Assembly (NCBI GenBank): GCA_965267245.1 | Contig: OZ253939.1 | Coordinates: 5,840,962 to 5,904,961 of the forward strand | Direction: 5' to 3' | DNA length: 64,000 bases | Source: Cyclobacteriaceae bacterium | GTDB taxonomy: Bacteria > Bacteroidota > Bacteroidia > Cytophagales > Cyclobacteriaceae | Shown: positions 18,685-53,147 of the stretch, piece by piece | Layout of the letters: the number at the start of each line of letters is the position of its first letter | Numbering within the stretch: position 1 is the first letter of the stretch | Notes under the pieces: model-generated | The model's database searches: none | The model's input: only the letters and a program-made list of their open reading frames with translations | What the model was told of the DNA's origin: nothing | Translations under genes and position numbers: made by a program

Positions 18685-18785
18685 TCTATTGATCGTTAAT
18701 TTGGTTGTTTTGAGACTTGTCTTACATTCCAGGATACGCCCCATATACCGGTGCTGACTTGCATGAAATCCAATTTGAAATACTA

Positions 18786-26063: not shown

Positions 26064-26242
26064 AAAGCTTTGTCATTATTCCTGGACCATGAAGGCCTTT
26101 TGTGTTTTGTAGATAAGACGTATTTCTCCTCAAATTCCGGGCAATAGCTACGTGCAGGAACAATAACCACCCAACCGGTCAAAGTTTTCCCAGACATCTC
26201 ATCATACCAGGTACATTTTGTTTCTAATGGAATTTTATTCAT
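26018..26242 (-). CDS. Hypothetical small protein
   Basis: 74-aa ORF that overlaps the TPR gene stop by 8 nt. Confidence 0.5.
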   Translation of the reverse strand: MNKIPLETKCTWYDEMSGKTLTGWVVIVPARSYCPEFEEKYVLSTKHKRPSWSRNNDKAFWKIVPASKLEICPN

Positions 26243-29293: not shown

Positions 29294-29309
29294 ATAATGT
29301 TGTGAATTT

Positions 29310-31331: not shown

Positions 31332-33532
31332 GCTGCTTCAACTTCTACCTCTGGTTTTGGCCATGTGTAAGTACCCGATCCGTAACGTCCAGTATTGCTG
31401 GCCACAAAGTTTTCGACATTCACAATTGAGTCAACAATGTGTGTCCAGGTTTGCTCACCTCTGAAGTCTCCGGCTTTGGTACTCTCCATTACCAGTATGA
31501 ATCCAATATTTGGGTATTGGTGCATAAAGGATTCCATTTCACTGGCTCTTATTCTGAAGTTGTTTATCAGATCGATGAAAACAAATTTGAATTTACCAGT
31601 ATCCAGGGCTTTTCTCAGTTCATTTAAGCTTCGGAAAGCGTCAAAGAACATACCAGGGTTACCATCCACCTTCATGTCTTTAATTAGCTTTTTGGTGGCC
31701 TGACCTATTCCCTGGTCCGCCAACACATAAAGCACATCACCAAACCCACTTATATAGTCGGCAAACTGAAAGCTGAATGAGGTTTTACCGTTTTTTGGTT
31801 TTCCATAAATGATCAATTTTAAATTGGTACCAGGATCTTGCATGAACTCACCCCATACACCATTAAAGGGCAATGTTTCAAAGTTTGTGTTCATGATATC
31901 GTCAGCGGTTTTGAACCCCATTGATGAATTTGTTTCTGCTTGAGAATCAGTTTCGTCTTGAGTGATTGAGTCGAGAAAGCCCCACCTTTCATTACTTTCT
32001 TCCTCTATGCCATTAAGTGTAGAGGTTTTTTTTGTAGGGGCTTTTTTAGGCCGTTTTACCGTTGGTCTGTCCTTCTTCTTTTTAGAATTTGCAAGCGATC
32101 TTTTGAGATATTTAGGTACTCCTTTGCTATCTGGTTGCAGAATAAAGTCTGCTGCTTCCTGAGCTTTACTGCTCGCTCTAAAAAAGAATTTATTATCCTT
32201 TTTCATGATGGCAAGTAGATTACTTTTCCAATGTTCCAGATATGCAGCACTGTTATTGATTGTATGATAGAGTATTCCGCTCTCACCACAAAGGAAAGTT
32301 GCCCCAAGCTCCGCTATCAATTCTTCAAAGGCATAATTTTTAGTTTTCATTCCTCCTGGCTTAAGACGGTCTAACCGTTTTTTATGTCCAGTACTGTGTA
32401 TGTACTCATGAAAAAGTGTACAGTAGTATTTTGGCAAACTTTCAAAAGATTCAGGCACAGGCATATTGACCTCATCCAATCCAGGTATATAGAATGCTTC
32501 AGGTTTTTTATGAGAAAATTTTGGTTTCGGAGTAGGGTAGGAGCGAATAATATTTTCAGCGGCCTCTATCTTTTCAGTCTGTTTCTTCTTCGGTTTCTTT
32601 TTAAGTTTAAAATCGATACCCTCAATATCCTCACCATTAAAAACCTTGTAGTAGCGCAATACCGGAAACTCGTCAAGGTTTTCGCACACATTAATTCCGT
32701 TTTCTGTTACCGGACCTTTAGCACATTGTGCAAAATACTTGAAGTACTGTTTGTCAGTTATTCTTTTTCCATCGAGTTTATAAATCATCTGAAAGTATGT
32801 GACGAAATAGCCTTTGGCACCTTCCTTCACTTTTCCTCCTTTTTGCTTCACCTGGTTGAATGTAAGAAAGTAGGGATTGTCCCACTCTTTTTGTCGCTGA
32901 AAAGGAATTAGAAAGTTTAACAGAAATGAGTTTATACCTCTATAAGGTTTTTTGCTTGCGAAATTTGTGGCTGGTAACCCATAGGATTCCATAGATTTCC
33001 ATGGTTTTCGCCAAACAAGATCTTTACTGTTCTCAATCATGTCTGTTACCATATCTGTAATGATTTGGTAAACATCATCATTAGCGACAGCCCCTAAAGT
33101 GTTCATGGCTGTTTCTTCACAATAGCATTCTATCCCATCAAGTGTTGTTACTCGATTTTTATAAGCAGTTTTACCATCTCGTGATATCTTAAATCCGGAA
33201 GATATAAATGTCTTCTTCTGACTAGTGTTGAGTTTTCTGGAGAATTGAATAGAGGCTTTGTTTGGTGTTATGCTTAGTTTTTTGAACGGGTCTGCAATTG
33301 CTTTATTTATGCATTTTTTAGTTTTAACGCTCAGCTTGATCTTAGCCTGTCCAATCTTATTTTTCCTCATGGCAGAAATAGTCTTATTCAGTTGATCCAA
33401 AACAACCTGATGACAATAACTTTTGACTGGATCTAAAGCGACAAGATTAGACTTTATGCTCTCAATACTGCCAATTTGAACGGTTTTACCATCCAGATTC
33501 CTAATTGTTCTATAGAGTCTATTTTCATCCAT
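31328..33532 (-). CDS. ArdC-like fusion protein: ssDNA-binding N-domain, zincin metalloprotease domain and C-terminal RecA/KaiC-like P-loop ATPase
   Basis: WRKPW...KKPYRGINSFLL...YFLTFNQVKQKGGKVKEG (DUF1738/ArdC-N), HEYIHSTGH...FEELIAELGATFLC (ArdC metalloprotease), a basic linker, Walker A GKPKNGKTS and Walker B FVFIDL. Confidence 0.78.
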   Translation of the reverse strand: MDENRLYRTIRNLDGKTVQIGSIESIKSNLVALDPVKSYCHQVVLDQLNKTISAMRKNKIGQAKIKLSVKTKKCINKAIADPFKKLSITPNKASIQFSRKLNTSQKKTFISSGFKISRDGKTAYKNRVTTLDGIECYCEETAMNTLGAVANDDVYQIITDMVTDMIENSKDLVWRKPWKSMESYGLPATNFASKKPYRGINSFLLNFLIPFQRQKEWDNPYFLTFNQVKQKGGKVKEGAKGYFVTYFQMIYKLDGKRITDKQYFKYFAQCAKGPVTENGINVCENLDEFPVLRYYKVFNGEDIEGIDFKLKKKPKKKQTEKIEAAENIIRSYPTPKPKFSHKKPEAFYIPGLDEVNMPVPESFESLPKYYCTLFHEYIHSTGHKKRLDRLKPGGMKTKNYAFEELIAELGATFLCGESGILYHTINNSAAYLEHWKSNLLAIMKKDNKFFFRASSKAQEAADFILQPDSKGVPKYLKRSLANSKKKKDRPTVKRPKKAPTKKTSTLNGIEEESNERWGFLDSITQDETDSQAETNSSMGFKTADDIMNTNFETLPFNGVWGEFMQDPGTNLKLIIYGKPKNGKTSFSFQFADYISGFGDVLYVLADQGIGQATKKLIKDMKVDGNPGMFFDAFRSLNELRKALDTGKFKFVFIDLINNFRIRASEMESFMHQYPNIGFILVMESTKAGDFRGEQTWTHIVDSIVNVENFVASNTGRYGSGTYTWPKPEVEVEAA

Positions 33533-33794: not shown

Positions 33795-34157
33795 TTAGTC
33801 TGTATTTTGATTGTTGAACTTACTTGTTAAGTCTTTGATTTCGCCTTTCATTTCAGAGATGCCAGTTGTTATTGCGGCCTCAAGACGCTCAATAGTTTCT
33901 TTCAAAAATTGTTGATTGAGTATGTCTTTCTCAGTGTTCAATTTTATTTGTGCCGAATTATTGTCAATCATTTGCCTGTGATCTTTTAGTTCCTGGTTGT
34001 GTTCCTTCAGTGTTTCTTTTAAGCCGTTAATACTCATTGTTAGAAATATTCCTATAACTGAAACTAAACCTGATATTATCAAAAGAATTATCTGGAATAG
34101 TTGCGGATCAATTAATGTGGGCTTCTTTGCAACTTGGAGCAATAATGTTTCAATCAT
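33795..34157 (-). CDS. Single-TM protein with coiled coil (holin/spanin-like position)
   Basis: LFQIILLIISGLVSVIGIFLTM is a TM helix, followed by a coiled coil. Confidence 0.5.
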   Translation of the reverse strand: MIETLLLQVAKKPTLIDPQLFQIILLIISGLVSVIGIFLTMSINGLKETLKEHNQELKDHRQMIDNNSAQIKLNTEKDILNQQFLKETIERLEAAITTGISEMKGEIKDLTSKFNNQNTD

Positions 34158-34166
34158 TGTGCGTAA

Positions 34167-34634
34167 TTATGTTTTTAGTGATTCATTCTTACTCGTTCCA
34201 TAATAATAGCTGAATAGACTAGTCACAACCACTCCTTCAACCATTCCAATCAAATGGATGAATATCTCTCTTTCTGCTACCTCAGGAATCCAAATAATAG
34301 CATAGACAATCACTCCATAACTAGCCAGGCCGACCAAACCAGTTAGAACCATCATCCAATCTATCTTTCGGATTTTACTTACTTCTACCTCTCTCCACCT
34401 GGCATTTTTCTTATCGTCTACTTCCAAAGCCATCACTTCCAATTCATATTCATGGACAAGCTTTAAAGATTCAGCTTTTTGTTCCGGAGTAAGATCCGGA
34501 TCATCTGAAATTAACTTGGTTAAGATCTTTACGGGAGGGAAAAAGTCATCCACTACGTCTACTATAGCAGGTGCTGCACCTACTAAAAATTTACCAATTT
34601 TGGTGTCCTTAAATTTTTTTTTGTCCTTTTTCAT
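34167..34634 (-). CDS. Membrane protein (holin-like position directly downstream of the muramidase gene)
   Basis: Two C-terminal hydrophobic helices (MMVLTGLVGLASYGVIVYAIIWI, LIGMVEGVVVTSLFSYYY). ATGA overlap with the GH108 gene. Confidence 0.5.
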   Translation of the reverse strand: MKKDKKKFKDTKIGKFLVGAAPAIVDVVDDFFPPVKILTKLISDDPDLTPEQKAESLKLVHEYELEVMALEVDDKKNARWREVEVSKIRKIDWMMVLTGLVGLASYGVIVYAIIWIPEVAEREIFIHLIGMVEGVVVTSLFSYYYGTSKNESLKT

Positions 34635-35287
34635 GCTGCATTTAAATAATCCAAGACCTGTTTTCTTGCCTTTTTGTTAAATGAAATATATAAACCAGCT
34701 GCCCCCACAAGTGAAAGGCCAACGAGAGCATAATTTGTACCTTTCAAGTCTGGGAATTGATTTGTTCTCCTCAACCAACCAGGTAGGTACTTACTGTGTA
34801 CAATTCCCCTTCTCACACGGTCCAGATGATAGTTAATGCGAGCTTGTTTGTATCGCATATATAGCTTTACTGGATTTACTTTATTAATTGCTGCGATAGT
34901 TTGTGACCCAATGTGATTATCTACCGAAACTCGTTGACCTAATGTATTTACAACCTCCTGAATTGTGGCAACTGCTTTTGCTGCCAGTATGAAGAAATCA
35001 AAGTAAATGTTAGCAACATTCTGGTTGTTGATTTCACCGGCACGGCTTTTTATCCATCTCTGCCTGTAGAACTCTTTCACGAAGGGTTCCATGCCAGGAA
35101 TTTGCTGGTTGTTACTCAATGGGCCCTTTACATATTTATAATTATCAACATGAGGCCATCCGCTCCAATTCGGATGAATGGCTCTTGCGACTCCTGCATA
35201 GGTTTCCCCACCAAGATCATCAGGGTCATTGGCATAGTAGCCCTCGTGCTTTCTTACAATTCGATATGCTGGATCAAAATTGCTCAC
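34631..35287 (-). CDS. GH108-family muramidase with a C-terminal TM anchor
   Basis: KHEGYYANDPDDLGGETYAGV is the GH108 signature. The C-terminal YALVGLSLVGAAGLYISF is a TM helix. Confidence 0.85.
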   Translation of the reverse strand: MSNFDPAYRIVRKHEGYYANDPDDLGGETYAGVARAIHPNWSGWPHVDNYKYVKGPLSNNQQIPGMEPFVKEFYRQRWIKSRAGEINNQNVANIYFDFFILAAKAVATIQEVVNTLGQRVSVDNHIGSQTIAAINKVNPVKLYMRYKQARINYHLDRVRRGIVHSKYLPGWLRRTNQFPDLKGTNYALVGLSLVGAAGLYISFNKKARKQVLDYLNAA

Positions 35288-35302
35288 CTGTTGGATTTTC
35301 TT

Positions 35303-36001
35303 TTAGATCATTCGACCGAAAGCGCCGTTTGGAATTATTCCTCTTTGTCGAGCAGGTATTTTACTCGCTATTCGCTTTAACCCTGAAGAAGTTCCTACAA
35401 TCCTCTTAAATTCGTCGTAAGTGACAATCGTTTTGGGTATCCCTGCGGCTTTTAGTGCTTTCTCAGTTCCAGGACCAAAAATCCCATCAGCACCACCAGA
35501 AGATCTTATAAAAGCACCGGCAGTACCACCTCTTTTAAGCAAGGCATTTTGCAAATCCTTTACAAACTGGCCTCTGGTTCCTTTTTTGAGAGGAAATCCA
35601 GCTGGGGTCATTTTATTTGCAGTTGTAAAAGTTGTAGATGGAAGACTTGATGTTACCTTACCTGTTAGACTTTTGAATGTTGCTTCGTCGATTGACAAAG
35701 GCCACCTAGCCAAGCTAACAGCCTTATTTGTACCAGGCCCCCAAATACCATCCGCACCTCCAGTATCACGAATGTATTTAGCAATAGTGCCTCCCTTTGA
35801 CAGAAGTACGTTTTGAAGCATTTTAACATTTTCGCCTCTACTACCTTGACTCAATGGAAAAGAGTCTCCTTTAGTGGAGATATCCTCGATTTCAATAGGG
35901 TCAATTGTGGATTTACCCTTTTGCTTGCTTACAACTTTATAAATCAGTACTCCCGTTCCTAGAGCGGCCGCACCTACAATTATTTTACCCTTGGTTTTCA
36001 T
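35303..36001 (-). CDS. Membrane-anchored protein with two PG_binding_1 peptidoglycan-binding domains
   Basis: N-terminal TM, then two copies of G.RG..VK.LQN.LL..GG......GGADGI.GPGT.KA. Confidence 0.8.
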   Translation of the reverse strand: MKTKGKIIVGAAALGTGVLIYKVVSKQKGKSTIDPIEIEDISTKGDSFPLSQGSRGENVKMLQNVLLSKGGTIAKYIRDTGGADGIWGPGTNKAVSLARWPLSIDEATFKSLTGKVTSSLPSTTFTTANKMTPAGFPLKKGTRGQFVKDLQNALLKRGGTAGAFIRSSGGADGIFGPGTEKALKAAGIPKTIVTYDEFKRIVGTSSGLKRIASKIPARQRGIIPNGAFGRMI

Positions 36002-36423
36002 TTTATCAAGTCAAGTTTCTCAAGTTTATTTACTACCACTACTCCTAGTCCCAAAACCGCCAAACCTCCTGCTACAGGTAGTATCCAGTTAAGGTTTCTA
36101 CTAATGTTTGCAACGCTTCCGGTAACATTAATGGCAGTATCTGCCACATTGGTGAATATTGCTGAAAGAAAGCTCCTGATATCAATACCGTTTTTTAAAA
36201 AGTATTCAACAAAATCAGTATTGTACCTACACCAATTAAGTGCATGATCCCATGGACCTTGTTTTTCCCATGCTGTCAGCCAAATTTCCTTTGCTTTACT
36301 TAATCCGTATTTTTCCTTTAGCCTCATATGCCAAATGGTCCATTCAGCACAACCCCAATAGTCATCCCAACCCCATTCGTCATAGTTAGGTGTGCTTTCT
36401 GCTGTGATCATGCTTGTTTCCAT
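35998..36423 (-). CDS. Trp-rich protein with a C-terminal TM anchor
   Basis: 141-aa ORF with WGWDDYWGCAEWTIWHM. The C-terminal ILPVAGGLAVLGLGVVVV is a TM helix. Confidence 0.5.
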   Translation of the reverse strand: METSMITAESTPNYDEWGWDDYWGCAEWTIWHMRLKEKYGLSKAKEIWLTAWEKQGPWDHALNWCRYNTDFVEYFLKNGIDIRSFLSAIFTNVADTAINVTGSVANISRNLNWILPVAGGLAVLGLGVVVVNKLEKLDLIK

Positions 36424-36426
36424 CGC

Positions 36427-36624
36427 TTATATGAATTTTTTAGCCATTTGTAATTTTTTGTCAATACCAGGCTTTTTACTTGCCTGTGCCAACCATTGCA
36501 AATCTTTTAGTTGCAATGTGCTTAGTTGCTCCAAAGCATGTACTTTTTGCTTTGCTTCATTGTCACTATTAGCGGTCACCTTAATTGTGCTGCTAACTTG
36601 TTTTTCGAAGTTGAGTGGTGCCAT
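36427..36624 (-). CDS. Hypothetical small protein
   Basis: 65-aa ORF that overlaps the upstream gene end by 32 nt. Confidence 0.35.
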   Translation of the reverse strand: MAPLNFEKQVSSTIKVTANSDNEAKQKVHALEQLSTLQLKDLQWLAQASKKPGIDKKLQMAKKFI

Positions 36625-37417
36625 CTTCTTTCTTTAGTTTTAGTTTATCAATTAGTTCTATTAAAAATTCAGGATTCGAATTGAATCGCTGAATAATCCA
36701 GTATACAGCCTCACCAAAGTTTTGCTGAATATCATCAGCTTGGCTGGATACCCATGCAGCAATTTTTGATGCTGTTTCAGTATATGCTCCACCTTCTATT
36801 GATTGTGGTTGTGGTTGGAGTAGATTGGCCAAAGAAGGTCCTATTACTTCAATCGCTTTCTCCGCTACTCCTGGATTGTTCTCAAAGAAACCATTGAGGC
36901 CTTTAGGGGTGTCTACTTCATCATTGAGTTTATCGATGATGGTGTCTTTCTTGATAATTTCCCTTTCAAGCTTTTCTTTTTCTTCTCTAAGATGCTCTAC
37001 TTTATCCTCCATTTTTTGGAGTCGAGATTTAGTCTCCTTAAGTGCTTCAGTTCGTTCCTCCAAAATCCAGCTTAAAGGATTATTGGGGTCTGTTCTTGAT
37101 GTTGGTGCTTTGTACTCTCTTGGTTCTGGTTCGATGTTTCCCAATGTTGCATTTGGAATTGCTTCAATTTCTGAAGCTGGGTTTAAGTGGAAGGAAAATT
37201 CCTGCAAATGTCTGAAAGGTTGTGAACCGTACTTCCAGTATACTCTAATTCGGACAAAGCCACTTTTGTCGCTTAGAACACTTTCAAGATCATCAAGATC
37301 CTCGTACTGCTCCTTATTAGATATTTTTCTAGCATCTACCCATACATCAAGGAAAATATCCCTTTCCTTTTCACTTTGTTGCTGATCGATAAATTGAATG
37401 GCGTCTTGTAGTGTCAT
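36593..37417 (-). CDS. Coiled-coil protein (scaffold-like?); its N-domain is paralogous to 13805-14278
   Basis: 274 aa with a central heptad-rich KETKSRLQKMEDKVEHLREEKEKLEREIIKKD. Confidence 0.55.
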   Translation of the reverse strand: MTLQDAIQFIDQQQSEKERDIFLDVWVDARKISNKEQYEDLDDLESVLSDKSGFVRIRVYWKYGSQPFRHLQEFSFHLNPASEIEAIPNATLGNIEPEPREYKAPTSRTDPNNPLSWILEERTEALKETKSRLQKMEDKVEHLREEKEKLEREIIKKDTIIDKLNDEVDTPKGLNGFFENNPGVAEKAIEVIGPSLANLLQPQPQSIEGGAYTETASKIAAWVSSQADDIQQNFGEAVYWIIQRFNSNPEFLIELIDKLKLKKEDGTTQLRKTS

Positions 37418-37429
37418 AATTTGGTGCGT

Positions 37430-37876
37430 TTAGTCTAGTACTACATATGATGGTGATGGATTGAAATAAATTACATCGGCAGTTAAAGCATATCCAACAA
37501 TCCTTACAACAGCATCAGTTGTTCCAGTAGGAGCGGTATCTGTTATTTCCCCTGCTGTTTCTGACACATATATGATAGATCCAGGAGTCCAGTCCCATGA
37601 TTCGTCTTTTATTAGGTTTCCTGGCAATGCGACCCTCATTTTATTTCCATCACTTCCATTTTCCAAAGCCACTGCCAGCAAGGAAGTGCTTGAGGCCTCA
37701 ACACTCGCATCGGCCACTAACCATTCTCCATCAGTTCCCAGATACAATAATTGCATGGAACTTATCGATGCTCCACCGTTAAGAGAGGATGTTAAAGGTC
37801 CTCCTTTTGCAGAATGATCTCTTCTTGGTAAGGAGAGATTTCGAGGGATACTATTTCCTTTCCTGACTAGAGTCAT
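37430..37876 (-). CDS. Putative virion protein (beta-rich, decoration/fibre-like pattern)
   Basis: 148-aa ORF. The GYALTADVIYFNPSPSYVVLD ending and the alternating pattern suggest a beta-sandwich. There is no firm family assignment. Confidence 0.45.
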   Translation of the reverse strand: MTLVRKGNSIPRNLSLPRRDHSAKGGPLTSSLNGGASISSMQLLYLGTDGEWLVADASVEASSTSLLAVALENGSDGNKMRVALPGNLIKDESWDWTPGSIIYVSETAGEITDTAPTGTTDAVVRIVGYALTADVIYFNPSPSYVVLD

Positions 37877-38212
37877 TTATTCTTCTTCTTCCACCAGTTT
37901 ATTAATAATCACTCTCGCAGAGCCGGATTGAACATTTTGTGAGCTATCAGCAAAATGAATGAACCATTCAGTGTTTAATGGAGCATTTATATCACCAGTC
38001 CATTGAATCCCTTCTTCTGTAGCTTCGATTGGCAAAGAGTATGTCTTGTCTTTATCCATTTCAACGTACAGTATACTGGTGCTCTCATTTTCAATAGTTA
38101 CACCAACAACATTTCTTAACTCAAGTTTTGTGAGTTCATTTGCTGCCCCGGTATTCAGAAGCATACTCACTAATACTTTCGTTGATTTATTCATTTTAAG
38201 AGTCTTTTTCAA
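37877..38212 (-). CDS. Hypothetical structural-module protein
   Basis: 111-aa ORF directly abutting its neighbours. Confidence 0.45.
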   Translation of the reverse strand: MKKTLKMNKSTKVLVSMLLNTGAANELTKLELRNVVGVTIENESTSILYVEMDKDKTYSLPIEATEEGIQWTGDINAPLNTEWFIHFADSSQNVQSGSARVIINKLVEEEE

Positions 38213-38963
38213 TTCTTGCGTGAAATAGTAATTGGTAATCTGACCCAGAAACAGCGCTAGTAGTTTTTTTCATGATTGTAAGTCCCTGGCCTTTAATTAT
38301 CTTAAAATCAACATTCAAGAACTTCTTGTTGGGTTCAACAGCATTGTTTTCAAGTAATTCGTGACCTGCAAGATCTAATATCCTTCCATTGGTATCCTTT
38401 AGTCCTATATATCTGGCTCCACTTAGGCCTCCAGAATCAAACTCATAAACCCATAGTCCTGTACATCTATCATACTCAGAGTCAAGTTCGAAAGGAAACT
38501 CATAAGTGTTTGCAGCAGATCCATCTGGGATGGTGCATAACTTTTTCTGATACTTAACTCTTGATTTTTTTTCAATTGGGATATCATCTTTTATCAAGAG
38601 AGCATCAAAAACTACCTTAAACTCTGAGGATGTTACACCAGGTGTTTCGGTTCTCAGTTTTAAATTTTGACCTGATTTTATTGGAAAATTAACATCAAGA
38701 AATTTTTCATTTGGGCCGCTGTATGATGATGTAAACAGATTATAATTAACAAAATCTAAAATAACACCATCGTTATCCTTGAGTCCATAGGATCTTAGAT
38801 TCGATAACCCTCCTGATGAAATAACTTGAGCTCTTAAACCAATACACCTGTCATAGTTGGTGTCAAGTTCAAAATCGTCTTCATGTATCCCTGCGGGCTG
38901 TCCACTTGCAACAACAAGAACTCCTGATTTGACCTTTATATTTCTATCTAGTAAACTGTTCAT
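38196..38963 (-). CDS. Protein built from two tandem homologous domains of about 97 aa (capsid candidate)
   Basis: Residues 31-126 and 158-254 align: FELDTNYDRCIGL...SGGLS...GLKDNDGVILD...PNEKFLDVNFPIKSGQNL versus FELDSEYDRCTGL...SGGLS...GLKDTNGRILD...PNKKFLNVDFKIIKGQGL. Confidence 0.6.
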   Translation of the reverse strand: MNSLLDRNIKVKSGVLVVASGQPAGIHEDDFELDTNYDRCIGLRAQVISSGGLSNLRSYGLKDNDGVILDFVNYNLFTSSYSGPNEKFLDVNFPIKSGQNLKLRTETPGVTSSEFKVVFDALLIKDDIPIEKKSRVKYQKKLCTIPDGSAANTYEFPFELDSEYDRCTGLWVYEFDSGGLSGARYIGLKDTNGRILDLAGHELLENNAVEPNKKFLNVDFKIIKGQGLTIMKKTTSAVSGSDYQLLFHARIEKDS

Positions 38964-39063: not shown

Positions 39064-39681
39064 TTAGTCCAGTCTGGTTTTCCACCCAATTAAGGCCACC
39101 TCAAGGTGAACAGCAGTATTTGCGCTTATTACAGTTTCCCCTGCGGCAAATTTGATTTCCCAGGTAAATGGAACATCTGCTCGAAGCAACCTTAACTGCT
39201 TCAACTGATAAGTGTCATCCTTTCCTGCGGCATTGTTCGAATCAGCCTGTGAGGTAGCTTCAAATATCTCCAATTCAAGCAATGGTCTGTCATTTTGAGA
39301 AATGATCAGTTTACCATTAGCCAAAGCAGCAGGGAAATTGGATCTTTTGCTGCTGTAGTTTGCTGTATGAGCAGGGTCTGTGGTGGAATCACTTCCAACT
39401 ACTCCAATTTTCACCCCAGAAATCACCATATGCTCATACTTAGGTAATTTTGAGTTGTTGAAGTTTCTAATTCCCTGCTCCTCTGTGTCGCCACCTAGAA
39501 ACAATTCCTGGATACCTGCCAGACCAATGATATTCTTACGCACATAAAGCGTATGGTCGTCAAGTCTCAAGGCATCTTTCTCAAGAGCAACTTTTGTGTC
39601 CTCATCTAGCCTAGCGAAGATTTTGTCTTTGGCAAGAAAGTCAAATACTCTGTTCTCGCCGTACATGATTTGTGAATTCAT
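39064..39681 (-). CDS. Putative major structural protein (205 aa)
   Basis: Beta-rich ORF preceded by the start-associated motif and followed by hairpins in the 100-nt gap. This is the position and size expected for an abundant virion protein. The call is an inference. Confidence 0.5.
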   Translation of the reverse strand: MNSQIMYGENRVFDFLAKDKIFARLDEDTKVALEKDALRLDDHTLYVRKNIIGLAGIQELFLGGDTEEQGIRNFNNSKLPKYEHMVISGVKIGVVGSDSTTDPAHTANYSSKRSNFPAALANGKLIISQNDRPLLELEIFEATSQADSNNAAGKDDTYQLKQLRLLRADVPFTWEIKFAAGETVISANTAVHLEVALIGWKTRLD

Positions 39682-39748: not shown

Positions 39749-40234
39749 TTAGGTCAAACTATTAGAAAGAATTGCGCTTTCTTCAAAGTCTCCTCCCTCG
39801 CCAGCCAGTTGCTGTGAAAGAAGGGGGTTGCCCATTCCAGCGAGACTATTTTCAAATGAGTCTCCAGAAGGCAGCATTTCGAAATCGTCAAATTCGCCCA
39901 TCATAGCGGCCTCTTCCATATCAGCCATTGATAAGCCATTTACGGTGACTACTGCGTCATTACCAGGTAGCAAGGACTCTATTTCGGCCAATACTCCTGT
40001 GAACCTTTTTTCAGGTTTAAATACCAGTTTTTTTACTGCGCTCAGTGCGCCAAAACCGGCCATTACTGCACCGGCAGGTTTTGCCCAGTCCGGTCCAAAG
40101 TACCACGCAGCACCGCCTGCTACCAAGGAAACCCCTGGACCAATTAAGCCTGGAATCTTGTTTTCTGCGGCTTGTGCTGCCAAGAGGCCTGCTCCGCTGG
40201 AGCCAACCTCAATAAGTGCATTTTCAATTTTCAT
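39749..40234 (-). CDS. Gly/Ala-rich membrane protein with an acidic tail
   Basis: GSSGAGLLAAQAA...GVSLVAGGAAWYFG...GAVMAGFGALSAV is followed by a D/E-rich C-terminus. Confidence 0.5.
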   Translation of the reverse strand: MKIENALIEVGSSGAGLLAAQAAENKIPGLIGPGVSLVAGGAAWYFGPDWAKPAGAVMAGFGALSAVKKLVFKPEKRFTGVLAEIESLLPGNDAVVTVNGLSMADMEEAAMMGEFDDFEMLPSGDSFENSLAGMGNPLLSQQLAGEGGDFEESAILSNSLT

Positions 40235-40248
40235 AAAACATTCAATTT

Positions 40249-43200
40249 TTAAATTACGATAGTCGTATTCTTCGATTTTTTTGATTTAGTTTTTTTCCTT
40301 TTTGGGCCATTCATAGGAGCCGGTGACGGGTTAGGTCTAACTGGAGCTGGTTGGTGATAAACAGGCTGTGTACTTCCTTTCTTGCTGCTTACAGCATAGA
40401 TTAAACCACCTACTGCAACAACACCTATTCCCGCCATTATCAATTCTTTTTGAGTAAGTCCACCAATTTCTAGTTGCTTAACAGATTGGCTACTGATTAC
40501 TTCCGGTTGTAAGACTTTAGCATCCTGGATATCTGAATTTGTGGCAGCTGGTATTGCTTTCTGTGGTGGAGTAGGAAGGGTATTGTTCATTACTTCCCTT
40601 GTTATGTTTTCCTTTACAACTGGAGGTGCAGGAACTGTTACTGATAATTTTGTAAGATGTGGTTTTCCTGCTTGGTCCGCGTACTTATTTGCATAATTTG
40701 CGTATGTGTTTGCTCGAATTGCATCATTCTTGGCCTTGTACATATCATACTTTTGCTTGTATGAATTATAGCGACTTAACGCAAGGCTAGATGCTGAAGA
40801 ACTGCTTGAGCTAGTTTTCTTTGTGACTGAACTAGTTATTTTATTAACTGCTTTATTCAGAAGCGGTTTATCCTTGGTTAGATCACTCAGTTTATTTCCT
40901 ACCGCTTTAACCAGGTTATTTTTTGTGTCTTCCTTGTCATTGCCAATGTTTTGAACAATCCCGTTAACTATTGGATTTTCACTTAAGCCTTTCAGAAGGT
41001 CTACAATTTTCACTATAAATGGAGCGGCCGCAGCGGTTGCTGCTGCTGCTGTTGCTGGTTCTCCCATACCTACTAGGTATTCAGCTTCCTCTATCCCTCT
41101 CAGTGCGGTTCTTGCACGTGAAGCAATTGGAATATTAATTGAAGACGTTTTACTTGTAGTTGGTCTAACATAGGAAGAAGTTTTCTTTGAAGGAGTTGGT
41201 TTTTTTGAACTCGTGGTTTGAGGTGGTCTTCCTCCAGTAACAATCGGTCTGCTGGTAGCTCCAATTACAGACTTTAAGTTTGCATCCAGCTTTGGTTGAC
41301 CGGCCCTATCAGCGTATTGATTTGCAAGTGAGGCATATCTATTAGCCGCTGTATAACTTTTGGCGTTTTTGTATGTAATATATCGTGACTTATAGTTGTT
41401 GTAGGATTTAAGTGCCGCCTCTCTGTCTCTACTGGAAACGGTAGAAGAGGAAGTTGTACTGGAGGTAGTTCGTGGACCTTTAGTCAATGATCTTGGATCT
41501 GTTACAGTAGTTATTAGAGGTAGCTTTGGTTGCCCTGCTTTTTCTGCATATCTATTTGCGTACTCTACATACCTGTTTGCAAGAGTCTTATTTCCTTTAA
41601 TTTCATATGTTTTGGCTGAGGCTTTGTATCTAGTGTAAAGTTTTAATGCATTTGGGTCTACCTTTTGAGCGGCCTTAGCTTTCATTTTAGCGATCTCTGC
41701 CGGATCTTTTGAGCCCGAATTACCAGGATTGAAAATTGTTCTGGTTGGAATTGGGCTAGTATTAGAAGAAGTTGTAGTTGACAATTTAGGTTGACCTGCT
41801 AAAGCTGCATACTTATTGGCAGCATTGACAGCTGCTATAAATTGACTTCTAAGTCTTCCATTACCTCTATACTTATCAGCTAAATCCTTGTACTTTTTGT
41901 ACTGAGCCAAATATTGTTGCTGCTTAGGATCATTTCTTTTAATCGAAGATGCAGATCCCCTGGAAGTGTTGTAAGAAACATTCCTGATTTGATCCGTTGA
42001 TTTTACTTTTGGAACATTTGACTTTGAAGAAGATGGTGGATTCATTACATACTTGAAATCAATGAACCAGCTTTTATCTCCGATTACCTTTTTCGCTCCG
42101 TCTGAAACTGCTTCCGCAAATTTCTTTGGATCTCCACCTATGGTTTTAAAAATCTTCTCGACCTTATCATAGCTGTCCTTTCTTTTTTTCCAATCATTCA
42201 GATCTATTTTTGCATTTTGTGCCTGTTGTTGTGAATATCGACCAGGCCAAATAGCAGCAGCTTTCTTTTTACCCAGGACTCGAAACCACACTTTAATTCC
42301 TTCCCTGGCTAGTAAAGTAGCGGGAAAGACTTTTTTAACCCCTTGAGCAACCTTACCAGCTACTTTCTTAACGCCATTAAATACTTTTTTGAAAATACCA
42401 TCTCCACCTAGACCTAAACTGCCAAATTCTTCGTCAACGATGAGAAGAGCTATAACATATTCCCTTTTATCAGGATCATCCCAGGATTCAATCAAGAGAT
42501 CAACTTTTGAAATGAAATCTTCAGGAGATTCACCATTAGGAACTTGCTCAACTCCATTAATGATGTTGGCTCGTAATTCTACCCAACCATTTTTTGTGTC
42601 TAAGGCATATTCAGTGATACCTTGCATTGTACCACAGTCACAGGTAATTCCATTCATGGCAGTAATATTTTTAGGGTTTACAATCACCTCATCATAGTAT
42701 TTTGGGAGATTGTTTTTGGGATATTCAAAGTCAAATTTGTCAAGTACGGGATCAATCACATAGTAATTGTCTCTGGTTGATAAGTTTGCTCCATCGCTTT
42801 TTGGAACAACTATGTAAACATGGCTATAATCTCCAGTGGCACTTTTACTAATCTTTCGTATAGAAAAAGGAATACCGAAGTTGTAGAGTATTGCGCCTGT
42901 CAGGAAAGCCATATCATCACAATCAATTCCGCTTTTTCTGAGAGCGTAGCTTGCAGAAACACCCTTTACCTGTTCTCGGTTTTTAGGATCCTGCTTATAT
43001 TGGAAATTGTTGTATATGTGATTGAAGATATTTCTAGCAAAAATCTCTCGATTTGCTGAATATAGTTTTTTTGCAATTTTGGCTGCTTCTTTGTGATCCT
43101 GCTGGATTTTCTCAACCATCAAGTTAAGCGTATCATAGCTCGTGCCAAGAGTTATTGTAGTTTCTTTGGGTTTTCTGGACGGGTAGTAACTATCAAATTG

Positions 43201-43290
43201 GTTTCCAGTGTTAATTTCTCTCGCACCAGAAGCAACTACACCGAGACCATTCATATAGGTTATTGGATATCGTGATAATACTCTGGTCAT
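40249..43290 (-). CDS. 1013-aa protein: N-terminal transglutaminase-like cysteine protease core, four Tyr/Lys-rich repeats of about 50 aa, and a C-terminal TM anchor
   Basis: GIDCDDMAFLTGAILYNFGIPFSIRKI...YSHVYIVV...YYVIDPV gives a Cys-His-Asp triad pattern. The repeats end in AGQPKL or AGKPHL. The TM helix is IMAGIGVVAVGGLIYAV, followed by a Pro-rich basic tail. Confidence 0.7.
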   Translation of the reverse strand: MTRVLSRYPITYMNGLGVVASGAREINTGNQFDSYYPSRKPKETTITLGTSYDTLNLMVEKIQQDHKEAAKIAKKLYSANREIFARNIFNHIYNNFQYKQDPKNREQVKGVSASYALRKSGIDCDDMAFLTGAILYNFGIPFSIRKISKSATGDYSHVYIVVPKSDGANLSTRDNYYVIDPVLDKFDFEYPKNNLPKYYDEVIVNPKNITAMNGITCDCGTMQGITEYALDTKNGWVELRANIINGVEQVPNGESPEDFISKVDLLIESWDDPDKREYVIALLIVDEEFGSLGLGGDGIFKKVFNGVKKVAGKVAQGVKKVFPATLLAREGIKVWFRVLGKKKAAAIWPGRYSQQQAQNAKIDLNDWKKRKDSYDKVEKIFKTIGGDPKKFAEAVSDGAKKVIGDKSWFIDFKYVMNPPSSSKSNVPKVKSTDQIRNVSYNTSRGSASSIKRNDPKQQQYLAQYKKYKDLADKYRGNGRLRSQFIAAVNAANKYAALAGQPKLSTTTSSNTSPIPTRTIFNPGNSGSKDPAEIAKMKAKAAQKVDPNALKLYTRYKASAKTYEIKGNKTLANRYVEYANRYAEKAGQPKLPLITTVTDPRSLTKGPRTTSSTTSSSTVSSRDREAALKSYNNYKSRYITYKNAKSYTAANRYASLANQYADRAGQPKLDANLKSVIGATSRPIVTGGRPPQTTSSKKPTPSKKTSSYVRPTTSKTSSINIPIASRARTALRGIEEAEYLVGMGEPATAAAATAAAAPFIVKIVDLLKGLSENPIVNGIVQNIGNDKEDTKNNLVKAVGNKLSDLTKDKPLLNKAVNKITSSVTKKTSSSSSSASSLALSRYNSYKQKYDMYKAKNDAIRANTYANYANKYADQAGKPHLTKLSVTVPAPPVVKENITREVMNNTLPTPPQKAIPAATNSDIQDAKVLQPEVISSQSVKQLEIGGLTQKELIMAGIGVVAVGGLIYAVSSKKGSTQPVYHQPAPVRPNPSPAPMNGPKRKKTKSKKSKNTTIVI

Positions 43291-44346: not shown

Positions 44347-45150
44347 TTATTGCTCAAACCTACTTTTCTTATAGGTTTTCATAAAATACCTCTCAATAGG
44401 TGAATACTTACTGCCATCAAAACTGACAAATGCATCATTGCCATTGATGTTAAGAAATTTGCAGTTTTTCACACTCTGTTGCACTTCCTTCACATTAGCC
44501 GCATTAGACAATTGCGCTAATCTATTCGGGTTTTTGGGGTCAACTGTAATTTGTTGATTCTCTGAAAACTTTTCACTTAGATTAAGATAATAGCTATTGA
44601 TATTGATCTCATCTGGCACATTTTTGAAAAGATCTTCAAAATCATTCGTGTGATATGGTTGTGGAGTGTGTGTTTCAAAATTTAATGGGGAAAATACTCC
44701 AATGTCAGCTAGTGCATTCATTGTATTCAATAATTTCTCAGCAAACTTTGAATATGACATAACAAAGTCACCGTATACAATTGGCTTCTTTATTCTGTTG
44801 TAGCTTGAAATTAACTCATCAAAGTACTTAGGTTTTTCCTTTGCAGGTTCATACTCTCGAAGCAGGATAAAGTCATCAGAGAACTTGGTGAAAATACCCT
44901 GGTATCCTTTTCCGGTTAGATGCCTGATTCCTACTTTTATTTTGTTGATCATGTTGTGATCCTTGCCTAATTCTTGAAGGTCATTCATGCGGATAAAACA
45001 GACTCCCTGTATCCATTCAGGTTTTTTTGGACCTAGAATGATTACATCCTTTAAACCTTTATAGTATCGATCAATTCCTCTGAGTGTATACCTGAGTTCC
45101 TTGTACTCATTTTTAGGGTCTTCAGCTAATGGAATTATAATTGGGTACAT
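44347..45150 (-). CDS. Stealth-like (capsule hexose-1-phosphate transferase family) protein
   Basis: KELRYTLRGIDRY resembles the Stealth CR2 motif ELRYSLRS. 267 aa. Moderate by-eye call. Confidence 0.5.
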   Translation of the reverse strand: MYPIIIPLAEDPKNEYKELRYTLRGIDRYYKGLKDVIILGPKKPEWIQGVCFIRMNDLQELGKDHNMINKIKVGIRHLTGKGYQGIFTKFSDDFILLREYEPAKEKPKYFDELISSYNRIKKPIVYGDFVMSYSKFAEKLLNTMNALADIGVFSPLNFETHTPQPYHTNDFEDLFKNVPDEININSYYLNLSEKFSENQQITVDPKNPNRLAQLSNAANVKEVQQSVKNCKFLNINGNDAFVSFDGSKYSPIERYFMKTYKKSRFEQ

Positions 45151-45773
45151 ATTTCCTGGAATTTAGATGGTGGAATAACATTGATTGTTTCTTTGTACCA
45201 GGAAAAAGATTCCTCGTAATTTACTTCTAAGAATTTAGTATTAATGATGTTTTCAAAAACAGCAATTCCATAATCATCATCAATAACATATTGATCCTGA
45301 AAGTAAATTTTGTGGTGTTCCCCAATTATGTTGGTGATACAGGCAATAGCCTTCCATACGTCTCCTGTCCATTCACTGGATTCTCTGGGAACACGTTGCA
45401 TTATTTCTGTTTTAGGCAGAGCATCATGCATGACAATTGTTCCATTGTAACCTCTTAATGCTTGTAGTGAATACAAAAAATCAATGAGAGCTTGTTCCCA
45501 ATGGTGAAGGCCATCAATGAAAATAAGATCAAATTGTCTAACATCATGATTGAACTTGGAATTAAGAGTTTTTCTAAAATATTCATTACTGGTTAGTTGA
45601 AAAAAAACTCCATCGTATTCAGATCCTTCGAAATTGCTTTCTGGATCTACTCCTACTTTCTTAGCGCATTTTATCTTGTTAAAATTGTTATGCGGATTTT
45701 GCACTCCAATTTCTAAATAGGATTCATACTTGTGCTTTTCAATTAAAGCATTTAAAACTTCAGTGTGATTCAT
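45135..45773 (-). CDS. Class I SAM-dependent methyltransferase
   Basis: YLEIGVQN (motif I-like) and FDLIFIDGLHHWEQ are typical of the Methyltransf_24 / O-MTase group. Confidence 0.7.
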   Translation of the reverse strand: MNHTEVLNALIEKHKYESYLEIGVQNPHNNFNKIKCAKKVGVDPESNFEGSEYDGVFFQLTSNEYFRKTLNSKFNHDVRQFDLIFIDGLHHWEQALIDFLYSLQALRGYNGTIVMHDALPKTEIMQRVPRESSEWTGDVWKAIACITNIIGEHHKIYFQDQYVIDDDYGIAVFENIINTKFLEVNYEESFSWYKETINVIPPSKFQEICTQL

Positions 45774-45783
45774 TGGTGTGTGG

Positions 45784-46335
45784 TTATTTTAAGTGAGAAA
45801 TGTCAGTTATATCAGTGTCTAACCTATAAAAGTGAATTGCCAATAATGCTTTCATCAGCCGTACTGGTTTTTGTAATCTGTGTATACCCCAGGCAAATCG
45901 ATTATCTACCGAGAGACATCCGATCCCTTCTTCAAAAGGGTTTTCTTTCCATGTTTCCTTACTAAAAATCATGTGAAATCCACTTATTTCATTTGGTATA
46001 TCAATAATTTCTAGTGATTCGCCATACTTCAATATTTGCTCGTTTTGCTTAATATTCCAGTATTTTAAACTGTCTTTGTCCTGGTGAACGCCTCCTTCAT
46101 ACTTCTGATTGGCATTCTTGGTACGACTTGCGTATGATGTAAATAAACCTGTGTCTGGATACTTTTGGATATAGCGCTTCATTATCTCCATTTGTGGTAT
46201 CTCAGTTTTTGTCCACATTACATCATAGTCCTGAACAGATATCCAGCAATCATCCGGCATATACTGTATAGCCTCGTTGTAAGCTCTCCCTAAATCTTTC
46301 TCAAAGCTGAAGGGAGTAAGAAAAAACAATTTCAT
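45784..46335 (-). CDS. Glycosyltransferase-like protein (GT-A type)
   Basis: TPFSFEKDLGRAYNEAIQYMPDDCWISVQDYDVMW resembles the nucleotide-sugar-binding/DxD region of small GT2-like enzymes. Confidence 0.5.
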   Translation of the reverse strand: MKLFFLTPFSFEKDLGRAYNEAIQYMPDDCWISVQDYDVMWTKTEIPQMEIMKRYIQKYPDTGLFTSYASRTKNANQKYEGGVHQDKDSLKYWNIKQNEQILKYGESLEIIDIPNEISGFHMIFSKETWKENPFEEGIGCLSVDNRFAWGIHRLQKPVRLMKALLAIHFYRLDTDITDISHLK

Positions 46336-46336
46336 T

Positions 46337-47023: not shown

Positions 47024-47047
47024 TCTTTAGTTTTTTGTGGTGTGTGG

Positions 47048-53022: not shown

Positions 53023-53147
53023 TTTCTCCTTCTTTCTATGATTTGAATAATTATGAATGGTGAAAATAAAATTACTGAAATACCGACTATAATCAACATT
53101 CCCAATATAAGGGCGAATGACACACAATCTAAAACATACTCACTCAT
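53019..53147 (-). CDS. Possible 42-aa TM peptide upstream of the integrase
   Basis: MSEYVLDCVSFALILGMLIIVGISVILFSPFIIIQIIERRRK. ATGA overlap with the integrase start. Confidence 0.35.
   Translation of the reverse strand: MSEYVLDCVSFALILGMLIIVGISVILFSPFIIIQIIERRRK

Follow-up and report, generated by a model that had tools for sequence, protein, structure and literature searches.

The window analysed here, a stretch of 64,000 nucleotides from a Cyclobacteriaceae bacterium, holds a complete element of 39.5 kb (~12039-51520) that is integrated at a tRNA-Glu gene (Table 1). The limits of the element were set by its attachment core and by a step in read depth: contigs break and depth steps at the left attachment core, read depth over the element was 1.8-2.1x in four runs, and junction contigs leading from 51520 into 12039 were recovered in runs X1-X4. 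The element is mobile, and it is absent from other strains carrying the same species label; the 51520-12039 junction is compatible both with an excised circle and with a chromosomal tandem duplication. An element reaching past 51520 was considered and rejected on the depth step and the attachment core; the stretch from 51520 to ~59300 is a second, adjacent element.

Table 1. Features of the element discussed in the text (positions in the window; aa, amino acids).
Feature	Position	Strand	Basis or remark
tRNA-Glu gene and left attachment core GGACTGCCAAAG (12027-12038)	11961-12038	+	ARAGORN; 12-nt repeat
Large serine recombinase	11995-13569	-	3' end on attachment core; Pfam Resolvase, Recombinase, Zn_ribbon_recom
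673-aa Ig-like-domain protein and 420-aa beta-helix protein	28031-31331	-	He_PIG match; beta-helix repeats in sequence
734-aa fusion of ArdC-N, zincin peptidase and C-terminal RecA-like ATPase	31328-33532	-	Pfam, PHROGs
Lysis and membrane block	33795-36423	-	Pfam/PHROG matches; orthologs in L059
274-aa coiled-coil protein (possibly scaffold-like)	36593-37417	-	Pfam/PHROG matches of coiled-coil type only
148-aa protein, weakly cement/head-decoration-like	37430-37876	-	Pfam, PHROG matches
Conserved ~100-aa gene	37877-38212	-	Directly downstream of the 255-aa gene; likely start ATG at 38194
255-aa target gene	38196-38963	-	ATG start; 28.3 kDa, pI 5.5; two tandem jelly-roll domains
C-terminal jelly-roll domain	38202-38558	-	Residues 136-254; AF2 model, Foldseek matches to single jelly-roll proteins
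N-terminal jelly-roll domain	38586-38939	-	Residues 9-126; alignment limits and eight strands in full-length model
205-aa partner gene, candidate second (large) capsid protein	39064-39681	-	Adjoins jelly-roll gene(s) upstream
161-aa Gly/Ala-rich predicted membrane protein	39749-40234	-	L059 ortholog 55% identical
1013-aa protein	40249-43290	-	Transglutaminase-like N-terminal domain, repeats, C-terminal transmembrane segment
158-aa protein with N-terminal transmembrane helix	43287-43763	-	First gene of conserved block
Right attachment core GGACTGCCAAAG beside partial tRNA-like copy	51509-51520	+	12-nt repeat, junction contigs

All ORFs of the element of at least 100 aa were scanned against Pfam, and most of them also against PHROGs. 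By these searches the complete element holds no terminase (TerL), portal, HK97 capsid or tail gene, and nine related contigs gave no Pfam match to terminase, portal, HK97 capsid or tail genes. A Walker A scan of the element region detected no FtsK/HerA-type packaging ATPase and only three Walker A proteins: the RecA-like ATPase fused to ArdC, a primase-helicase and a DUF3987 protein. Among these the ATPase domain of the 734-aa protein, as judged from its sequence, is the only candidate for a packaging or assembly NTPase, and it would be of non-FtsK type. Neither conjugation genes nor a canonical penton gene were identified in the element. A sequence-only reading of this DNA had placed the 255-aa protein in a virion-type module, and this assignment held: the module is compact, with several small predicted membrane proteins, in an element devoid of tailed-phage head and tail genes. 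The tail module of a tailed phage, in which the 1013-aa protein would be the tape measure and the 255-aa protein Dit-like, was considered and rejected on the same gene content, since genes for tube, portal, terminase and HK97 capsid are all missing from the complete element.

The module recurs in related loci (designated L and a number). The pair formed by the jelly-roll gene(s) and a 205-family gene is present in all ten loci examined; a transglutaminase-like large protein is encoded upstream of it, and genes for small membrane proteins and for lysis follow downstream. The minimal version, in L065, comprises ~8-9 genes. At the upstream end the 158-aa protein has an ortholog in L059 (50% identical) and a weak Pfam match to LEA_2. 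The 1013-aa protein carries four repeats of the motif Y..YK...AN.YA..AGQPKL, as read from the translation, and matches DUF553 in Pfam (E = 1.9e-4); its homologues stand upstream of the gene pair in eight loci. Genes sized like that of the 161-aa protein were found at the same place in seven loci. Downstream of the pair, the ~100-aa gene has an L059 ortholog (48% identical) and positional equivalents of 86-107 aa in five loci. The 148-aa protein matches PF09956 (E = 1.8e-4, below the family cut-off), phrog_4368 (E = 2.6e-9) and phrog_122, "head decoration" (E = 0.0025); it is 64% identical in L059 and absent from L065. The 274-aa protein is conserved in L059, with a gene of 259-288 aa at the same place in other loci, and the lysis block encodes a 141-aa protein with a transmembrane segment, a 232-aa protein with two PG_binding_1 domains, a GH108 lysozyme, and proteins of 155 and 120 aa.

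The 734-aa fusion, whose Walker A motif reads GKPKNGKT and whose ATPase domain was assigned by Pfam to AAA_24 and GvpD_P-loop, is kept as a fusion in three loci, L065 included. When its ArdC-like protein served as search handle, 57 IMG/VR loci were retrieved and none of them carried the jelly-roll family; ArdC is no specific marker of such elements. The 673-aa and 420-aa proteins are candidate spikes or receptor-binding proteins by their domain content, and in L059 their orthologs come directly after the cement-like gene, one of them with a Pfam Beta_helix match. Just upstream, genes for glycosyltransferases and methyltransferases form a cluster. A promoter and terminator scan returned fewer sites than shuffled sequence.

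Comparison of the two halves of the 255-aa protein confirmed that it is a tandem duplication: residues 1-127 and 128-255 share 47 of 119 positions in BLASTP (39%, one gap, E = 4e-29), and their Smith-Waterman score was 220, against 27.9 +/- 4.9 in 2000 shuffles (z = 39). The duplication had been called clear from the letters alone, with both copies mapped to the correct nucleotides. By exact recount, 47 of 118 pairs are identical between residues 9-126 and 136-254, and 43 of 96 between residues 31-126 and the second half; counted from residue 31, the first 68 positions of the alignment hold 34 identities, where 36 had been claimed. The repeat unit, previously put at ~97 aa, is ~118-125 aa long and begins ~22 residues further toward the N-terminus, and the HMM of the jelly-roll family matches the protein at two places. 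The nucleotide sequences of the two halves share 49% identity, and 38% at third codon positions; thus the duplication is old at the DNA level and not recent in absolute terms. Because synonymous sites are near saturation, it can be called recent only relative to other two-domain members.

The family to which the repeat unit belongs comprises 145 representatives: ~129 single-domain proteins (107-190 aa, mostly 116-160 aa; ~90% of the family), 12 two-domain proteins and four long repetitive ones, the last of which are probably spurious. With single-domain proteins in such majority, this is not a double jelly-roll (DJR) capsid protein family as such. At one and the same syntenic position the relatives encode one, two, four or six jelly-roll domains (one in L061 and L001, four to six in L059 and L063), and the number of jelly-roll genes per locus varies from one to three. 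The fusion of two jelly-roll domains appears to have arisen more than once; the domain tree was built on Poisson distance. The jelly-roll family evolves much faster than its 205-aa neighbour: the 255-aa protein is ~31% identical to its counterpart in L059, and the 205-aa protein ~63%. Fast divergence and variable copy number are each expected more of surface or accessory proteins than of those that make the core of a shell.

By sequence the family stands apart. The 255-aa protein and 54 family members gave zero matches in Pfam and PHROG, and the family gave only spurious ones among PDB sequence profiles (the designed propeller Tako8, TRAPPII, a chitinase); in these three sets of searches no relation to known capsid proteins was detected. 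Neither the 255-aa nor the 205-aa protein had a tblastn match in 50,697 phage records. Word-indexed homology searches found only the query itself with the 255-aa protein and three further proteins with the family alignment, and single module proteins had no confirmed relatives in genome and viral collections. By hhalign the family showed no relation to the neighbouring 205-aa, 148-aa and 111-aa proteins. The sequence-only reading had proposed a link to PM2-type DJR capsid proteins, which these comparisons did not bear out: sequence and profile searches connected the family neither with PM2 and PRD1 nor with other DJR capsid proteins.

Structure prediction, on the other hand, returned a jelly-roll fold. 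The C-terminal domain, modelled with AF2 from a 131-sequence alignment, has eight beta-strands (pLDDT 95.4, pTM 0.87), so that the repeat unit is, on this model, an eight-stranded jelly-roll. The full-length model also has about eight strands per half, at pLDDT 64 and pTM 0.46; in a Foldseek search of the PDB, the best 50 matches of this low-pLDDT model were all DJR major capsid proteins, among them those of PBCV-1, PRD1, PR772 and SGIV (best E 1.9e-7; query-normalised TM-scores 0.50-0.59). The single-domain model matched single jelly-roll capsid proteins and other jelly-rolls, with jelly-rolls of many functions about equal (E ~1e-4, TM ~0.5): phage cement proteins, including the trimeric ones of phages KHP30 and KHP40 (7dou, 7dn2), Ena pili, nucleoplasmin and many uncharacterised phage jelly-rolls. 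A fold search of BFVD with the same model returned generic jelly-rolls only. The resemblance to a double-beta-barrel capsid protein that had been suggested therefore stands in part: two jelly-rolls are predicted and the full-length model matches DJR capsid proteins, while the single domain matches jelly-rolls in general. The DJR-type arrangement of the two domains is suggested with modest confidence by the full-length model.

The 205-aa protein is the invariant neighbour of the jelly-roll gene. In all ten loci the jelly-roll gene(s) come straight after a 205-family member of 205-265 aa (HMM E = 1e-18 to 1e-105), with 56-73% identity among close relatives of the 205-aa protein. The family HMM, run against 33 proteins, picked out the structural protein gp45 of the orphan Salisaeta phage SSIP-1 (E = 4e-5; hhalign probability 28%) and gp46 (E = 0.03); the PDB profile search gave weak matches to PL7 alginate lyases (E = 0.03), and the family alignment found no relatives in genome, viral and metagenome collections. 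As previously proposed, the 205-aa protein may well be a second component of the capsid, given its constant place beside the jelly-roll gene and its weak similarity to gp45 and gp46; it would itself be a jelly-roll capsid protein.

SSIP-1 is tailless and membrane-containing, with a T = 49 capsid, a 44-kb genome and two types of major capsid protein (MCP) (PMC6356626, PMC4958249, PMC6260650), and its genome has hardly any similarity to GenBank sequences (PMC6356626). Three proteins of the element have counterparts in it: i) the N-terminal domain of the 1013-aa protein matches the structural protein gp34 (E = 7e-14 pairwise, 4e-20 with an HMM of orthologs); ii) the ATPase domain of the 734-aa protein matches the structural protein gp40 (E = 4e-9 pairwise); iii) the GH108 lysozyme matches the ORF31 lysozyme (E = 3e-26). 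Going by sequence similarity, three to four element proteins other than the 255-aa protein are homologous to SSIP-1 virion proteins, and the element is a distant relative of SSIP-1. Gene order agrees: SSIP-1 has a giant protein followed by proteins of 241, 210, 211, 256 and 132 aa, all with a structural annotation, collinear with the block of the element (giant protein, membrane-type protein, ~210, ~256 and ~130 aa). The genomes are of similar size (43.8 kb and 39.5 kb), and the hosts belong to the Bacteroidetes/Rhodothermaeota group. The 256-aa protein gp47, equal in position and size to the 255-aa protein, had no significant similarity to the jelly-roll family (E = 0.22, hhalign probability <1%), and its internal repeat is faint (z = 4, against 39). 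Other differences are that a pair of 210-aa paralogs in SSIP-1 (gp45 and gp46, z = 18.6) corresponds to one gene in the window; that SSIP-1 lacks an annotated integrase and is listed as lytic (PMC6356626), whereas the element is integrated at a tRNA gene by a serine recombinase; that the ATPase shares its chain with ArdC-N and zincin domains in the element, unlike in SSIP-1; and that SSIP-1 particles have been described, while the element is known here from its genes.

We put at about even the chances that the 255-aa protein is part of the capsid shell, as a covalent dimer partnering the 205-aa protein, in a temperate virus of 39.5 kb that is tailless and probably contains a membrane. The building unit would be a minimal eight-stranded jelly-roll of ~120 aa, a free-standing small protein in most relatives, and the jelly-roll gene and the conserved gene of 205-265 aa would encode the small and the large capsid protein of a two-MCP virus. 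Small jelly-rolls may sit next to one another at the base of pseudo-hexameric capsomers, in the manner of VP16 dimers in P23-77 and of VP7 in HCIV-1; tandem duplication would then fuse two small subunits into a covalent dimer, a block resembling a double jelly-roll. On this reading the protein would be present in the virion, would form the shell rather than decorate it, and would have vertical barrels. A direct reason for joining two small subunits in one chain comes from single beta-barrel viruses, whose capsomers are assemblies of jelly-roll dimers (PMC4958249, PMC6414509); the geometry of these dimers "foresees" the DJR of PM2 (PMC6414509).

Two-MCP vertical single beta-barrel viruses (Sphaerolipoviridae, Simuloviridae, Matshushitaviridae), with which SSIP-1 has been grouped (PMC4958249, PMC5332951), likewise have the small and the large capsid gene side by side, as VP16/VP17 in P23-77 and VP7/VP4 in HCIV-1 and HHIV-2. 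The likeness extends to a tailless module with several small membrane proteins and, by modelling, to the jelly-roll of the small protein. Sequence and profile comparison found no similarity of the element's family to VP16, VP17, VP4 or VP7. Moreover, in the element it is the small protein and not the large one that is duplicated, its copies are in tandem and not stacked as in VP17, no FtsK-type packaging ATPase is present, and the genome is about twice as large.

The matches of the full-length model (pLDDT 64), all 50 best of which were DJR capsid proteins in the PDB, also accord with the 255-aa protein being the sole, PM2-type DJR capsid protein, whose homotrimers would be pseudo-hexameric capsomers and whose 205-aa neighbour would be a penton or membrane-proximal minor protein. 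The element is tailless, and PM2 P2, at ~269 aa, is close to the 255-aa protein in length. DJR capsid proteins such as those of PM2 and PhiCjT23 also have two eight-stranded jelly-rolls per chain, and the small ones share its minimal loops (PMC9719478). We nevertheless regard this as improbable. The model itself is of low confidence; ~90% of the family is single-domain, and relatives carry one or four to six domains at the same place; the halves are 40% identical, whereas the PhiCjT23 paper gives the likeness of V1 and V2 in known DJR proteins in structural terms only, as RMSD (PMC9719478). Conservation is far stronger in the 205-aa protein than in its neighbour, and it is the 205-aa protein that has some similarity to gp45 and gp46 of SSIP-1, a virus placed among the two-MCP single-barrel viruses. 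Finally, the FtsK/HerA-type ATPase missing from the element region is typical of the DJR group, although it is also absent from the Odin group and FLiP (PMC5894146).

That the shell is made by the 205-aa protein, possibly with others, and the 255-aa protein is an accessory of the outer capsid (cement or decoration, turret, vertex or receptor-binding jelly-roll) is unlikely in our estimate, yet it draws on the confident domain model, which matches the KHP30/KHP40 cement proteins and phage jelly-rolls. Tailed-phage cement proteins (PF09956; KHP30, KHP40) share the unit size of ~120-130 aa and the jelly-roll fold; divergence within the family is fast and the number of copies variable, and a weakly cement-like gene, that of the 148-aa protein, lies two genes downstream. 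Sequence similarity between cement proteins and the 255-aa protein was not found, and cement proteins are known as decoration of HK97-fold shells, whereas HK97 capsid, portal and terminase genes are lacking from the element and the nine related contigs. Furthermore the jelly-roll gene is never missing and always stands beside the 205-family gene, while cement-like and spike genes are dispensable, as in L065, and a minimal module of ~8-9 genes offers few other candidates for a second shell protein. Least probable, and by our judgement very improbable, is a role outside the virion, as a carbohydrate-binding, lectin-like jelly-roll or an accessory of lysis or host interaction, or in a plasmid-like element that makes no particles. 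Carbohydrate-binding modules often have a jelly-roll fold, the glycosyltransferase/methyltransferase cluster is close by, and ArdC-like, primase and recombinase genes are typical of integrative elements; but the top structural matches are capsid proteins and not carbohydrate-binding modules or enzymes, the lysis cassette in the module is complete (GH108, PG-binding domains, small membrane proteins), the module also encodes homologues of three SSIP-1 proteins whose structural role was assigned by experiment, and conjugation genes were not found.

The origin of DJR capsid proteins is debated, between fusion of two viral single jelly-roll genes and recruitment from the cell of a protein with both jelly-rolls already in place (PMC8812541). 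The family described here has free-standing, fused and multiply duplicated versions at one syntenic position, and the 255-aa protein may show two single jelly-roll capsid domains in the course of fusion into one double. As a broader and more tentative proposal, possible though below even chances, tailless proviruses of Bacteroidota would be the first recognised relatives of SSIP-1, with a shell made from an undescribed minimal jelly-roll that was fused more than once, independently of the classical DJR lineage. If so, they would show the passage from single to double jelly-roll still at work inside a living virus lineage; SSIP-1 would gain its first relatives, and this virus type would extend to temperate elements at tRNA genes. 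The ATPase of the 734-aa protein is flagged as a candidate assembly or packaging ATPase of non-FtsK type. Were the 255-aa protein a shell component as preferred above, the effects of fusion on capsomer assembly could be tested by comparing single-domain and fused relatives, and the circular or tandem junction in the sequenced culture makes experiments feasible.

The target protein consists of two similar halves in tandem: residues 9-126 and 136-254 align with one gap and 47 identities over 118-119 positions (39-40%), at a BLASTP E-value of 4e-29 and a Smith-Waterman score of 39 standard deviations over 2000 shuffles. The repeat coordinates of the sequence-only reading were correct on recheck, and its hand count (36 identities in the first 68 positions) came close to the exact 34, but the alignment shows a longer unit of about 120 aa in place of the proposed 97. 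That reading had also spoken of a recent duplication, yet the DNA of the two halves is 49% identical overall and 38% at third positions; thus the duplication is old in absolute terms.

Positions of the principal features in the window
Feature	Coordinates	Strand	Description
tRNA-Glu	11961-12035		
734-aa fusion	31328-33532	minus	ArdC-N + zincin metallopeptidase + RecA-like ATPase
Target ORF	38196-38963	minus	255 aa, 28.3 kDa, pI 5.5
1013-aa protein	40249-43290	minus	transglutaminase-like N-domain, a homologue of structural gp34 of phage SSIP-1

The target matched no Pfam or PHROG family, and a word-indexed homology search returned only the target itself. Exhaustive HMMER searching with a profile built from its two halves (E <= 1e-3) yielded a family of 145 cluster representatives: i) ~129 proteins with one domain, 107-190 aa long (mostly 116-160) and matching the profile over its full length; ii) 12 two-domain proteins of 242-274 aa; iii) four long and repetitive sequences, which are probably spurious. 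Among 54 members scanned against Pfam and PHROG, no family match was found except one stray weak one. For the C-terminal unit, AlphaFold2 (131-sequence alignment) predicted exactly eight beta-strands at pLDDT 95.4 and pTM 0.87, and Foldseek matched this model to jelly-rolls of diverse kinds at modest scores (E ~1e-4, TM ~0.5), including bromovirus and cucumovirus coat proteins, Ena pilus subunits, nucleoplasmin, cement proteins of phages KHP30/KHP40 and many uncharacterised phage proteins. The full-length model, built without an alignment, reached pLDDT 64 and pTM 0.46, and its 50 best PDB matches, all of them double jelly-roll (DJR) capsid proteins, had E-values down to 1.9e-7 at query-normalised TM-scores of 0.5-0.59. 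On these models, the predicted jelly-roll fold of the unit is solid, while the DJR-like packing of two units, which had also been proposed, is suggestive only.

At each of the ten loci compared, the gene immediately upstream of the jelly-roll gene(s) belongs to the family of the 205-aa ORF (39064-39681 in the window; HMM E-values of 1e-18 to 1e-105). Contigs that extend further also carry two more genes, one for a small Gly/Ala-rich membrane protein and one for a large protein (1013 aa in the window) whose N-domain is transglutaminase-like. On the downstream side come a ~100-aa gene, a ~270-aa coiled-coil protein and small membrane proteins, along with a lysis cassette that combines PG-binding domains with GH108 or other muramidases. 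The minimal module, in related locus L065, has only ~nine genes between replication and lysis functions and is without cement-like and spike-like genes. Conservation is much stronger in the 205-aa protein (63% identity to its counterpart in locus L059; 56-73% among close relatives) than in the target (~31% to L059). Besides its N-domain, the 1013-aa protein has Ser/Thr-rich linkers, a C-terminal transmembrane segment and a Tyr/Lys/Ala-rich motif that ends in AGQPKL and occurs four times; its relatives are 341-1022 aa long. Five genes immediately upstream of the structural module (window 44347-47716, minus strand) form a block that is conserved in L059. They encode a GT-D-like, a TOD1/MUCI70-like and a further glycosyltransferase, together with a Methyltransf_24 and a phrog_7999 protein, and may serve glycan modification of the virion or host surface.

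The number of jelly-roll domains at the target position varies among the related loci. L001, L061 and L069 each have one single-domain gene, and L065, L068 and L070 share with the window a lone two-domain gene. Tandem paralogous two-domain genes number two in L059 (10001-11505; four domains, against two in the window) and three in L063 (8536-10741; six domains). For comparison of domains, 16 two-domain proteins were split (the 12 representatives and four more from fetched loci; of these four, the second L063 paralogue has the same sequence as representative P0035). The halves are by far most alike in the window protein, at 40% against 12-27% in all the others. A neighbour-joining tree (1000 bootstraps), whose resolution is limited by just 145 columns and a distance-based method, united the C-domains of the closest syntenic relatives (P0002, L065 and the second L059 paralogue) at 99.7% support and their N-domains at 87%. 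The window C-domain fell inside that C-clade in only 10% of replicates, grouping with N-type and single-domain sequences such as P0003, and a second group (L063, P0030, P0046, P0050 and P0091) formed separate N and C clusters. The comparison indicates either more than one fusion event or gene conversion that homogenised the halves of the window protein.

The module belongs to a mobile element of ~39.5 kb (~12039-51520), the whole of which falls inside the window. It is integrated at the 3' end of tRNA-Glu, where a 12-nt core, GGACTGCCAAAG, lies at 12027-12038; the core recurs at 51509-51520 next to an incomplete tRNA-like copy. One sample was represented by four sequencing runs, in which contig depth over the element was 1.8-2.1x that of the flanking chromosome (67.5/38, 50.3/28.1, 33.5/18 and 44/20.9), and all four contained a junction contig running from 51520 straight into 12039; the element was absent from three runs of other strains with the same species label. 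Thus the att core, the depth step, the junction contigs and the strains without the element show that it is mobile and is present in the sequenced culture as an excised circle or a tandem copy, the contig data being compatible with both.

Apart from the target-bearing module, the element has genes for a DnaG-type primase (with a helicase-like P-loop), a serine recombinase, DNA methylases, two GH108 lysozymes, the ArdC-N/zincin/ATPase fusion and proteins with an Ig domain or a beta-helix, together with a glycosyltransferase and methyltransferase cluster and weak anti-defence-like genes. Searches of the element for terminase, portal, HK97-fold capsid, tail tube, sheath and tape-measure families all came back empty, and no ORF of suitable size was left unassigned for such tailed-phage genes, so a jelly-roll decoration protein would lack its usual setting here. 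The element has no FtsK/HerA-type ATPase, and its sole candidate NTPase for packaging or assembly is the ATPase of the 734-aa fusion, which L001, L065 and L068 also carry as a fusion. Two minus-strand genes, 15606-15971 and 18373-18744, gave weak sub-threshold matches to the Acb2/Tad1 hairpin domain (E = 2e-4) and a Tad2-like domain (E = 0.009) and are possible anti-defence genes; their neighbours are a PAPS-reductase-like gene and DNA methylases of the C5 and N6/N4 types. For a stretch of the C5 methylase gene (16368-16850), run X3 gave a second, divergent contig variant at about half the main contig's depth, with many substitutions and a 147-nt skip, so a further, related methylase sequence is present in the sample.

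The closest described system is the Salisaeta phage SSIP-1, whose sequence has been described as barely similar to GenBank entries (PMC6356626) and which reviews place among two-MCP (major capsid protein) vertical single beta-barrel viruses (PMC6356626, PMC6260650, PMC4958249, PMC5332951). Its GenBank record lists consecutive structural genes gp43 (2319 aa), gp44 (241), gp45 (210), gp46 (211), gp47 (256) and gp48 (132), which parallel in size and order the 1013, 161, 205, 255, 111 and 148 aa of the window. Structural gp34 matched the N-domain of the 1013-aa protein (pairwise E = 7e-14; ortholog HMM E = 4e-20), structural gp40 (Walker A) the C-terminal ATPase of the 734-aa fusion (pairwise E = 4e-9), and ORF31 the GH108 lysozyme at 15055-15570 (E = 3e-26). 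In a 33-protein search, the 205-aa family HMM matched gp45 almost over its full length (E = 4e-5; hhalign probability 28%) and gp46 at E = 0.03 (hhalign probability 4%), these two being clear paralogues (z = 18.6). For the target family, the best match among SSIP-1 proteins was gp47, which was not significant (E = 0.22). The internal repeat of gp47 is faint (z = 4), and its strand pattern recalls the target family; in SSIP-1, gp45, gp46 and gp47 lie at 34635-35959 and 36043-36813. Taken together, these comparisons make the element a distant relative of SSIP-1; only position and size suggest gp47 as the equivalent of the target.

By sequence homology and by ATPase the target falls outside the classical DJR capsid protein families, and it cannot be assigned to the sphaerolipovirus capsid proteins either; it would behave like a DJR or a two-single-jelly-roll capsid component. 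In two-MCP viruses, pseudo-hexameric capsomers consist of VP16 homodimers and VP17 monomers (P23-77; PMC4958249) or of VP7-VP4 heterodimers and VP7 monomers (HCIV-1 and HHIV-2; PMC6414509), and in the latter dimer the relative barrel orientation 'foresees' the PM2 double barrel (PMC6414509). Such pairing of a large and a small MCP fits the invariant pair of a 205-265-aa protein followed by a ~125-aa jelly-roll. By this analogy, the conserved 205-265-aa protein would be the large MCP and the small jelly-roll the small MCP, occupying neighbouring positions in the capsomer base. Fusing two copies of the small protein would give a covalent dimer with an unchanged lattice, which would explain repeated fusion and the later duplication and divergence of the fused genes.

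Alternatively, the target alone may form PM2-like trimers, or it may be an outer accessory protein, a reading that its fast evolution and variable copy number favour; against an accessory role stand the invariable presence and position of its family and the fact that the minimal module comprises so very few genes. A capsid role would bear on the debated origin of DJR capsid proteins (PMC8812541), and the element appears active and is therefore accessible to experiment. In the literature covered, which lay outside the original SSIP-1 description, we found no account of SSIP-1 relatives or of the target family, and no viral double jelly-roll with sequence-similar halves.

Beyond the element, two minus-strand ORFs of 792 and 222 aa beside a K+-channel gene (60925-63968) had no Pfam/PHROG match and no homologue in related contigs. 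Between them and the element lies a second, adjacent element (51502 to ~59321) at chromosomal depth throughout, whose own large serine recombinase (51502-53127) also has its end at the att core. This second element has HTH regulators, DUF3987 and DnaB-N-like genes, a CHAP peptidase 75% identical to that of the L059 lysis module and a TPR protein paralogous (37% identity) to that at 26235-27449, and may be a satellite or the remnant of a related element integrated in tandem.
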